Counted from the first letter of the stretch, positions 17,016-19,065 are shown. The stretch is DNA of 64,000 bases from Escherichia coli (GCF_003334405.1 NZ_QOWM01000002.1); one strand, 5' to 3'. Notes: generated from the sequence alone by a model not told the origin. Translations and numbers: made by a program.

Positions 17016-18360
17016 GCCACAATGTCAGCCCACAGGCCGGAGGCGTTGTGTATCAGATTCAGGTATCCGCCCAGGCTGCCGGCATCATCCCGGACCGTGC
17101 CGGCACGGGAGCCGTCATCATCCTTAACATCAACGGAAGAATGGCCAGCAGCACCATATACCCCCGCGGTCACAGACATACCGGCAACCTCTGTTCTGAG
17201 CAGGTCACCCTCCAGACGGACGAAGCCATAGCTGCCGCTGCTTTCCGGCGTGGCTCCACGGGCAATACCGCCGTTGTTATCGTGACCGAGATGACCGCCC
17301 TGAATGCTGAGACGGACGCTGTTATTTTCACCGCTTACACCGGTCTGATGGCTGCGGGAGCCTGCCAGAATCCGGTCATAGTCCATTGCCTGTGTCAGCA
17401 TGGAGGCATACAGGGGGACTTCTGCACGATAAGCATTTTCACTGCGCAGATACCAGCTCTCATCACTGTCCCGGTTGAGGGAGTAGTTAAAGGCACCGGC
17501 CTGCAGCTTATTCCCCTGGACAAAGGCCCCTTCCTCCGTGGTGGCACCGTTAATGGCTTCCACCACCTGAATACCCTTACCGCTGGTCGCCAGCCCCGAC
17601 GCACTGTTGCCGGCGTTCACCAGGTTCAGGATGGTTTTTCCGGTTGCCCTGCCACCGTCAATGACCAGTCTGTCAGCATTGTTCTGTGCCATATCCGGGC
17701 GTACACGCAGGCTGATGGTGCCATTCTGTCCGTTCAGGTTTTTCACTTTCAGGGTTGCCGGTACGAACTTCCCTGTGCGGGTGGAGGTGAAATGAATCTG
17801 TCCGGCATGGCTGAGGTCATCCACCACCGACTGCACCGTGGCGTTATCGGGAATATTCCAGGTGGCACCAGAGGCGAGAGTGACATTCGTGGGGTCAATG
17901 GCACCGTTCAGCACAGTGCTGCCGGTCAGCTTCAGGGCTGTACCGCGCTGAGCAATGACATCCGTGGTGACGGTACTGTCGTTCAGCGTCAGCGTGCCTT
18001 CATTCAGGTTGACGGCTTTCTGGGTGAGTGTGGTGTTGCTGACAGTGAGTGTGCCACTTCCTGATTTTTCCACGCTGCCGTTACCGGTGAGAGAGCCTCC
18101 CTGCAGGAGTGCATCGCCTTCACGGATGGTCAGGGTATCGTTGTTCACCGTCTTCCCGGAAAGGGTAAGTATGGCGCCGTTATTCAGCGTGGTGGTGCCC
18201 GCCAGTGTGCCGCCCCTGGCGGTGAACAGTCCGCCATTTACCGTGGTATCCGTGGCCGTATCACCGGCGTTCAGCGTGAATGAACTGCCTTTTTCCAGCA
18301 TCAGGGCATCCGCCTGACCGCCTCCGATACTGAATGCCTTTCCGTCGCTCCGGGTAACCC
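17015..18360 (-). pseudogene. Antigen 43-like autotransporter adhesin, internal fragment
   Basis: Gly/Thr/Asn-rich beta-helix repeats ('TLTQKAVNLNEGTLTLNDSTV...'); no signal peptide, no complete beta-barrel. Confidence 0.7.
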
Positions 18361-18428
18361 TTTCCGGTCAGCAGATAACGCGACTGACAGAATTACCCCC
18401 GGCATATAACCTGCAGCGCAGTGCGCAG

Positions 18429-18827
18429 TTGCTGCAGCAACTGATGGTACTTTTCCCCGACAATCCCCGTGTTCAGGAAATGGTGGATAACTGGCAGAAG
18501 AGCGTAAGGAGTCGTGCGCTCCCGGAAGAGGCGATGACGGGCTGGAATGAAGGCATGACCCGCTTACAGCAGCTGGCTGAACGCCTGAACCGTCTGGATG
18601 AACAGCGGGGAAAATACATGACGGTCAGTGAACTGAAAACGGAGGTGTTTGGCATCATGCAGGCTTTTAACTGGCATATCCCGGCGGAAGAGCAGTTACG
18701 TCGCTATGATGAAGCCCGTAACCAGAATGGCAGTGAACAGCAGCAAAAACAGGCTGAAATGGCACTGAATCAGCTGATTAATCGTTATCAGGTGGAACAC
18801 GCTGGCAAACCGGAGAGGCAGCCATGA
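18429..18827 (+). CDS. Hypothetical, probably the 3' part of a truncated island gene
   Basis: Frame stays open upstream to ~18330 with no good start context. Confidence 0.3.
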   Translation: MLQQLMVLFPDNPRVQEMVDNWQKSVRSRALPEEAMTGWNEGMTRLQQLAERLNRLDEQRGKYMTVSELKTEVFGIMQAFNWHIPAEEQLRRYDEARNQNGSEQQQKQAEMALNQLINRYQVEHAGKPERQP

Positions 18828-19065
18828 TGGCTGATAAAACATGGTAATGGAAAATAAACCCAAAAGAATGCGCACACCATGGGCAATCGAAGATATTCGC
18901 TACCTTGAAACGCATTATGGCGTGAAAAAAAACGCGAAATAGCGGCATATTGCCATGGGAGGGGATATGTCTGTCAGGCTGACTTGTTTTTCTCTTAAAT
19001 AGCCTTTATTTAAATTAGCCTTGGTATGAAATTAGAATCTATTAATTTTTATCAAAGGAGATTGT

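Follow-up and report, generated by a model that had tools for sequence, protein, structure and literature searches.

The region described here lies in the window, by which we mean the whole 64,000-nucleotide stretch of Escherichia coli DNA that was analysed (GCF_003334405.1, NZ_QOWM01000002.1). The window is E. coli-type chromosome, and two plus-strand reading frames, a long one and a short one downstream of it, sit within a short, eroded pheV island (~17.0-30.5 kb) whose left end has been lost. The features that define the locus are the following.

14697-16196: glcD
16196-17009: truncated glcE
17005-18356, minus strand: internal fragment of the autotransporter gene Ag43 (agn43/flu), with 18150-18351 being 100% identical to K-12 agn43
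18352-18356: Ag43-tagA junction, GGGTA shared by both parents, a 5-bp microhomology
18357-18827, plus strand: 3′ fragment of tagA/vasL, residues ~299-454 and the TGA, identified by its Pfam VasL, P0081 and A14 matches
18841-18949, plus strand: 5′ stub of a regulator-type gene (SANT/Myb-like) that retains the ancestral ATG, identified by DNA alignment with strain LH13-b
18950-19065, plus strand: start of an AT-rich module and upstream region of the 376-aa gene, replacing the rest of the SANT/Myb-like gene
19066-20196, plus strand: AT-rich 376-aa gene, GC ~0.3
20328-24887: qatABCD, a complete anti-phage system (PADLOC E = 0 to 6e-97)
29081-30406: P4-type integrase gene
30541-30616: tRNA-Phe (pheV, adjoining yqgA)

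The long frame was originally predicted to be open from about 18330 through 18827 and to be, perhaps, the 3′ end of a deleted island gene. On translation, the frame follows a stop codon at 18315-18317 and is open from 18318 to a TGA at 18825-18827, and the gene from which it derives can be named. Translated from 18357 onward, it matches the Pfam VasL model (PF12486) with E = 6.9e-38 over model positions 2-144 of 147, and the impression of a Gln/Arg-rich, helical-looking protein would fit this domain. The gene of origin is tagA/vasL, an accessory gene that closes the EAEC Sci-1-type type VI secretion system (T6SS) cluster of pheV/pheU-type islands, and the long frame is its 3′ third. The last ~156 of ~454 codons remain (~34% of the gene), comprising an almost complete VasL domain with no internal stop, and this fragment is 83% identical to residues 298-442 of its closest full-length relative, a 452-aa protein with ImpA_N and VasL domains (P0081), while its DNA shows 100% identity with the 3′ end of tagA in strain A14, where the gene is an uninterrupted frame of 454 codons. 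What the window copy has lost is everything upstream. The N-terminal ImpA_N domain (PF06812) is kept in the intact relatives P0081, A14 and 55989 and is absent here, where the DNA left of 18352 is Ag43 antisense; the hydrophobic/transmembrane segment (FLKPFVTGVCAALLAVSVAIPGW in relatives) lies upstream of the breakpoint and is deleted in the window; and the ancestral start codon is gone, leaving a TTG at 18429 as the earliest in-frame start codon. By BLAST, the 609 nt from 18352 to 18960 are present in 886 of 5,426 complete E. coli genomes, many at 99% identity or more, and the annotation at these matches is always 'VasL domain-containing protein'. Given the strong Pfam and BLAST evidence, chance open reading frames were rejected as an explanation for both frames.

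Full-length relatives place the fragment in its original setting. In a search of 1.8 billion representative proteins, VasL relatives from many bacteria are ~450-460 aa long, and intact relatives with both ImpA_N and VasL are 452-455 aa. The gene for P0081 follows tssF, tssG, tssJ, tssE and a helicase gene and precedes the kps capsule genes; the matching locus in E. coli VTB97432v is a complete T6SS cluster with tle1/tli1-EAEC. In strain 55989, whose T6SS is reported to lie on GI-pheV (PMC11537424), tssG, tssJ and tssE immediately precede tagA, which lies between two defence-like genes along with other island genes. The architecture of TagA is ImpA_N, a transmembrane region and VasL (PF12486), with the role of the VasL domain itself being unassigned (PMC6745524). 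The window fragment thus resembles TagA_EC of the EAEC Sci-1 T6SS and TagA_VC of V. cholerae (the VasL-type TssA-like class B) in its C-terminal VasL domain, and its full-length relatives share with TagA the order ImpA_N, membrane segment and VasL and a position at the end of a tssB-C-K-L...F-G-J-E cluster. Unlike TagA, the window copy lacks ImpA_N, the membrane segment, a start codon and any nearby T6SS gene, its neighbours being glcD/E, the Ag43 fragment, the AT-rich gene and qatABCD. Deprived of ImpA_N and the membrane anchor, and with no T6SS genes at the locus, a VasL domain has no plausible part in the action of TagA as it is known, and because the sheath stopper/clamp function of TagA needs both the N-terminal domain and membrane anchoring (PMC6745524), the window remnant would be unable to serve it.

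The defence-like cargo that flanks tagA varies by strain (L045:14310-21826, L051:2041-6192, L006:4194-6348, L004:10722-16414). Upstream, it consists of a GIY-YIG nuclease, a 3′-5′ exonuclease or a NERD-UvrD helicase; downstream, of an ATP-dependent nuclease, of Qat, or of a cytosine methyltransferase accompanied by ATP-binding and response-regulator genes. Defence genes look to be turned over in a hotspot at this tagA end of the T6SS cluster.

How tagA is annotated bears on how short VasL proteins in databases are read. In both A14 and 55989, RefSeq divides tagA into three features: an ImpA_N pseudogene, a 'POTRA' or hypothetical pseudogene, and a 171-174-aa 'VasL domain-containing protein'. 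Direct translation instead gives uninterrupted tagA frames of 454 codons in A14 (L001:11112-12476) and 455 codons in 55989 (L051:6247-7614), and tblastn returns one single match spanning residues 1-442 or more. Because the frames are uninterrupted and the match is single, tagA is most likely intact in both strains. The short database 'VasL domain-containing proteins' are in part annotation artefacts and in part true truncations like that of the window. The window fragment belongs to the same sequence family as WP_223723970.1 (A14) and WP_225380861.1 (55989), the A14 entry being 100% identical over the shared part; unlike these entries, which are split-off parts of a whole tagA and start upstream of the breakpoint, the window copy is really truncated. 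In strain 219, RefSeq flags the equivalent truncated piece as a pseudogene, 'incomplete; missing N-terminus'. Surveys of T6SS completeness that rely on RefSeq/PGAP annotation will undercount tagA.

Downstream of the tagA fragment, the original prediction reported a 31-codon ORF and suggested a small regulator or a toxin-antitoxin remnant. The ORF is present, running from an ATG at 18847 to a TAG at 18940-18942 with the peptide exactly as quoted (MENKPKR...), or from an ATG at 18841 if 33 codons are counted (MVMENKPKR...). Its origin is revealed by strain LH13-b, in which the gene after tagA is 633 nt long and encodes a 'SANT/Myb-like DNA-binding domain-containing protein' of 210 aa (WP_032234106.1). 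The first 28 residues of the small ORF are identical to the N-terminus of this protein at 22 of 28 positions, and its ATG occupies the same position, 13 nt past the tagA stop, in both genomes. A 1-nt deletion in the A-run at 18925-18932 then shifts the frame, leading to NAK and the TAG, so that only codons 1-28 are in frame; the DNA homology to the regulator gene runs on out of frame and ends at 18949. In all, the first 110 of 633 nt (17%) of the regulator gene remain. The window stub thus shares with WP_032234106.1 its N-terminus and its position relative to the tagA stop, and differs from it in length and in its broken frame. Judged by this alignment, the small ORF is a cut-off, frameshifted 5′ stub of a SANT/Myb-like regulator-type gene, and not a small gene.

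The intact 210-aa protein contains four W-x-x-E-E-type repeats, a full-length form that the window ORF lacks. Its match to PHROG 323 ('transcriptional regulator, D5-like') has E = 1.9e-23, and its Pfam Myb match is weak (E = 0.033). The intact gene is rare, being at least 80% covered in 21 of 5,426 genomes. The 80-90% identity band holds 241 records, and those listed match only nt 1-110 of the query (109 nt in the subject) and are unannotated. The 213-aa gene that follows an intact tagA in another locus (L006) was considered as a Myb-like gene and rejected, as it has no similarity.

The first part of the suggested identity therefore survives in altered form, as a stub of a regulator-type gene in place of a small regulator, and the second part, a toxin-antitoxin origin, finds no support. 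That verdict for the small ORF rests on its Myb-like homology, which accounts for the stub; the PADLOC and NCBIfam scans covered the tagA fragment, for which they gave no family match. In favour of a genuine small gene, whether a micro-regulator or a toxin/antitoxin remnant, the ORF keeps the ancestral ATG 13 nt past the tagA stop, where co-translation would be possible if the region were transcribed, and the same stub occurs in ~241 complete genomes (the 80-90% identity band). This reading is scarcely credible against the evidence for the stub. The first 28 codons belong to the N-terminus of a four-repeat protein, the last three codons and the stop are products of the 1-nt deletion beyond which homology continues, and the one partial Myb repeat that is left is unlikely to fold. 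In addition, the ORF is unannotated in all listed genomes, nothing points to a toxin-antitoxin relationship, and linkage to the Qat module accounts for the persistence of the stub.

The regulator stub ends where the AT-rich module begins, with GC falling from ~0.58 to ~0.3 on entry. The right junction, 18949/18950, is common to 227 complete genomes at 99-100% identity. The only plus-strand promoter-like site lies at 19009-19038 and serves the AT-rich gene. The 376-aa product of this gene carries an (AEV)n tandem repeat, is 430 aa long in strain 219, and has a weak PADLOC match to PD-Lambda-4_B (E = 3.7e-6). Strain A14 has a pheV island that matches the window with 100% identity over 18352-19482 and 29779-30849; it lacks 19483-29778 (Qat and its neighbours), and its AT-rich gene is joined directly to a truncated integrase gene.

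On the left, the fragment of tagA abuts inverted Ag43 DNA. Native agn43 reads ...GCTCCGGGTAcc, which extends the Ag43 homology to 18356. The native sequences around the point of joining are ...CTCCGGGTAcc in agn43 and ...GAGTGGGTAaccc in tagA, with GGGTA in common. The structure of the Ag43-tagA junction is that of a microhomology-mediated illegitimate join. It is found in no complete genome: none covers 16000-20400, and all matches begin at 18351-18352. A second joint, similar in character, lies 1.35 kb to the left, where truncated glcE is fused at 17005-17009, through a GGATT microhomology, to the inverted internal Ag43 fragment; glcE homology ends at 17009 and Ag43 homology begins at 17001-17005. 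This junction, too, is absent from the complete E. coli genomes in the collection. This fusion means that the chromosomal stretch from glcE to the pheV island has been lost. A 622-aa ORF at 16196-18064 is a read-through artefact of the glcE-Ag43 fusion.

These features can be arranged in a history of two illegitimate recombination events. The ancestral island would have carried an EAEC Sci-1-type T6SS cluster ending in tagA (~454 aa), with the SANT/Myb-like regulator gene 13 nt downstream. In the older event, represented in ~230-240 complete genomes, the AT-rich gene and QatABCD would have replaced the regulator gene past its first 110 nt, and the stub class that results from it also carries the frame-truncating 1-nt deletion. 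A14 and the window would both derive from one island type that contained intact tagA, the Myb stub, the AT-rich gene, Qat and further genes, the integrase gene and pheV. In the younger event, seen in this genome only, an inverted Ag43 fragment would have been joined to tagA at codon ~299 via GGGTA, removing the tagA start, ImpA_N, the membrane segment and whatever lay upstream. The homologies, breakpoints and distribution behind this two-event history are observed directly; the order of the two events is what we infer.

Published cases offer a parallel. GI-pheV islands are described as decaying by module, the modules being flu, yee, kps and T6SS (PMC11537424), and another study describes E. 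coli lineages that have lost a T6SS by deletion (PMC10711316). As in these cases, flu (Ag43) and T6SS remnants in the window adjoin intP4/pheV with no mobile element at the junction. To the extent that text searches of the two papers show, neither describes tagA remnants or a recurrent tagA breakpoint (PMC11537424; PMC10711316).

Both frames are ordinary debris of already known gene families. It is highly probable that they are non-functional remnants in the eroded pheV island, left by the two recombination events, and very likely that they are inert, giving rise to no useful product. As originally predicted, neither has a convincing start context: no sigma-70-like promoter is found upstream of either frame, no terminator for the fragments is found, and by eye no Shine-Dalgarno-like sequence precedes the TTG at 18429 or the internal TTG/ATG codons. 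The region holds no Rfam family, and a lone lncRNA match, far below threshold, was considered as a known RNA and taken as chance. Counting against the inert reading are a VasL domain that is essentially whole, the lack of an internal stop and the presence of internal TTG/ATG codons, and a truncated product made by read-through or internal initiation is possible. The commonness and conservation of the fragment in its 886 genomes could reflect recent spread or retention.

Taken further, these points would make the VasL piece a working stand-alone protein of ~130-157 aa, translated from an internal start or by antisense-Ag43 read-through, with a T6SS-independent role. Beyond the near-complete, uninterrupted domain, such a protein has a precedent in the 171-183-aa 'VasL domain-containing proteins' that PGAP calls in many genomes and in the 179-aa VasL-only protein listed for Citrobacter werkmanii (P0077). 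The PGAP calls in A14 and 55989, however, are artefacts of splitting a 454/455-codon tagA, and the start codon that such calls use lies upstream of the window breakpoint and has been lost. TagA also has a membrane segment before VasL that the window lacks, no promoter-like site is found, and the same piece, truncated alike, carries a pseudogene flag in RefSeq. We consider a stand-alone role very unlikely and favour the inert reading, in which the fragments are pseudogene debris recording the loss of a T6SS and a regulator from the pheV island and its gain of the Qat anti-phage module.

The left end of the tagA fragment is not peculiar to this window. A census was made of loci that contain the sequence just right of the junction, drawn from 34 metagenome contigs, from several complete genomes and from Logan contigs, with left flanks compared at 43 or more loci. 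Many of these loci read straight through the breakpoint, as does intact tagA, and homologues of 40-52% identity from other bacteria also read through this position. Among the others, tagA is joined to at least seven different left partners, always within one stretch of ~5 nt (..GG[G/A]TA then ACCCTTTCC..), with microhomologies of 1-6 nt and a partner consensus at the breakpoint of roughly GGNTA. The corresponding positions are 18352-18357 in the window, L001:12000, L002:8003, L004:9003, and those in L010, L043 and L046-L049. The junctions, given as left partner, sequence across the joint and occurrence, are as follows.

Ag43: ..CTCCGGGTA / ACCC; this window only
cdiB, codon ~113: ..CATGGTTA / ACCC; many complete genomes
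cdiB, signal-peptide end: ..GCGGATA / ACCC; complete genome EC361
tssC, codon ~45: ..CACTGGATA / ACCC; with an ISEc8 end and a tssC 5′ piece upstream (query L004:8780-9000), 196 complete genomes
tssC, codon ~38: ..ACCCGGTA / ACCC; 5 contigs from at least 3 sequencing runs
101-aa ORF immediately preceding tagA: ..GGCTGA / CCC; one Logan contig (L043)
site close to the gene for a GIY-YIG nuclease: ..GCCGCTA / ACCC; two Logan contigs (L049)

Other tagA breakpoints exist, none of them shared in this way. Between the two tssC types, divergence is 5% in tssC and 13% in tagA; between the two cdiB types it is 3.4% in cdiB, with tagA parts that are identical at 438 of 440 positions. Descent of the paired junctions from one another (tssC-a from tssC-b or the reverse, and likewise for cdiB-a/b) was rejected on these allele differences, and because of the differences in tssC and cdiB the paired types are independent. 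At the same time, five junction types share a right-hand module that is at least 99% identical, with left sides that differ.

One fixed end with many partners suggests that the DNA is either broken or nicked at a specific site, with end joining to follow, or imported repeatedly as a module whose end is defined. Joining at codon ~298 could come about by nested deletions on a fixed end, or by import of such a module and its joining through microhomology. That the breakpoint is a specific cis-acting site and no product of random deletion, acting as a break, a nick or the fixed end of imported DNA and re-joined by microhomology, is a possibility that we hold tentatively, at somewhat less than even likelihood. 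The clustering of seven left partners within ~5 nt around a GGNTA-like consensus argues for it, as does the independence of the paired tssC and cdiB types, and the identical right module on differing left sides fits the spread of one fixed-end module. Against it stands the lack of a mechanism, and for three of the seven junction types the sole sources are short metagenome or Logan contigs. No insertion sequence (IS) end is present at the breakpoint in any left flank examined, the hairpin potential at the breakpoint is not significant (z = -1.05), and there is no Chi site between kb 14 and kb 24 of the window. An IS66/ISEc8 end in AZ146 was rejected as the cause, since it lies 136 nt upstream, beside tssC, and not at the junction. 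A BstEII-type restriction site, GGTNACC, was likewise rejected, as it is found in the A14-like allele only and is absent from the GGATAACC allele of the tssC-type junctions. Resemblances of the breakpoint to a DnaA box, the 3′ end of tRNA-Phe and IS2/IS66 termini are ones we take to be weak.

Doubtful, and the less probable of these two claims, is the broader proposal that tagA codon ~298 is a break, nick or recombination site at which the 3′ end of tagA and its downstream defence cargo have been joined repeatedly to unrelated DNA, making it an undescribed cis-acting hotspot. A literature search found no paper on a tagA remnant or a breakpoint hotspot. If true, such a hotspot would shape pheV/pheU-type islands and T6SS loss in E. 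coli, and a real cis-acting site would offer a handle on the remodelling of genomic islands and the loss of T6SS clusters. A scan of GTDB species representatives returned one contaminant contig. The Pfam VasL model starts three residues past the breakpoint, and we suspect that abundant truncated E. coli proteins have set this boundary.

A second, weaker cluster of tagA breakpoints lies at ~18466-18480 in the window, around 'FPDNPRV' (L046:3230, L049:~2580, P0029). It takes in P0029, with an in-frame internal deletion, L046-48, where tagA is joined to integrase-proximal DNA, and L049, where the left end of an IS66-family element, GTAAGCG, is inserted at these same few codons.
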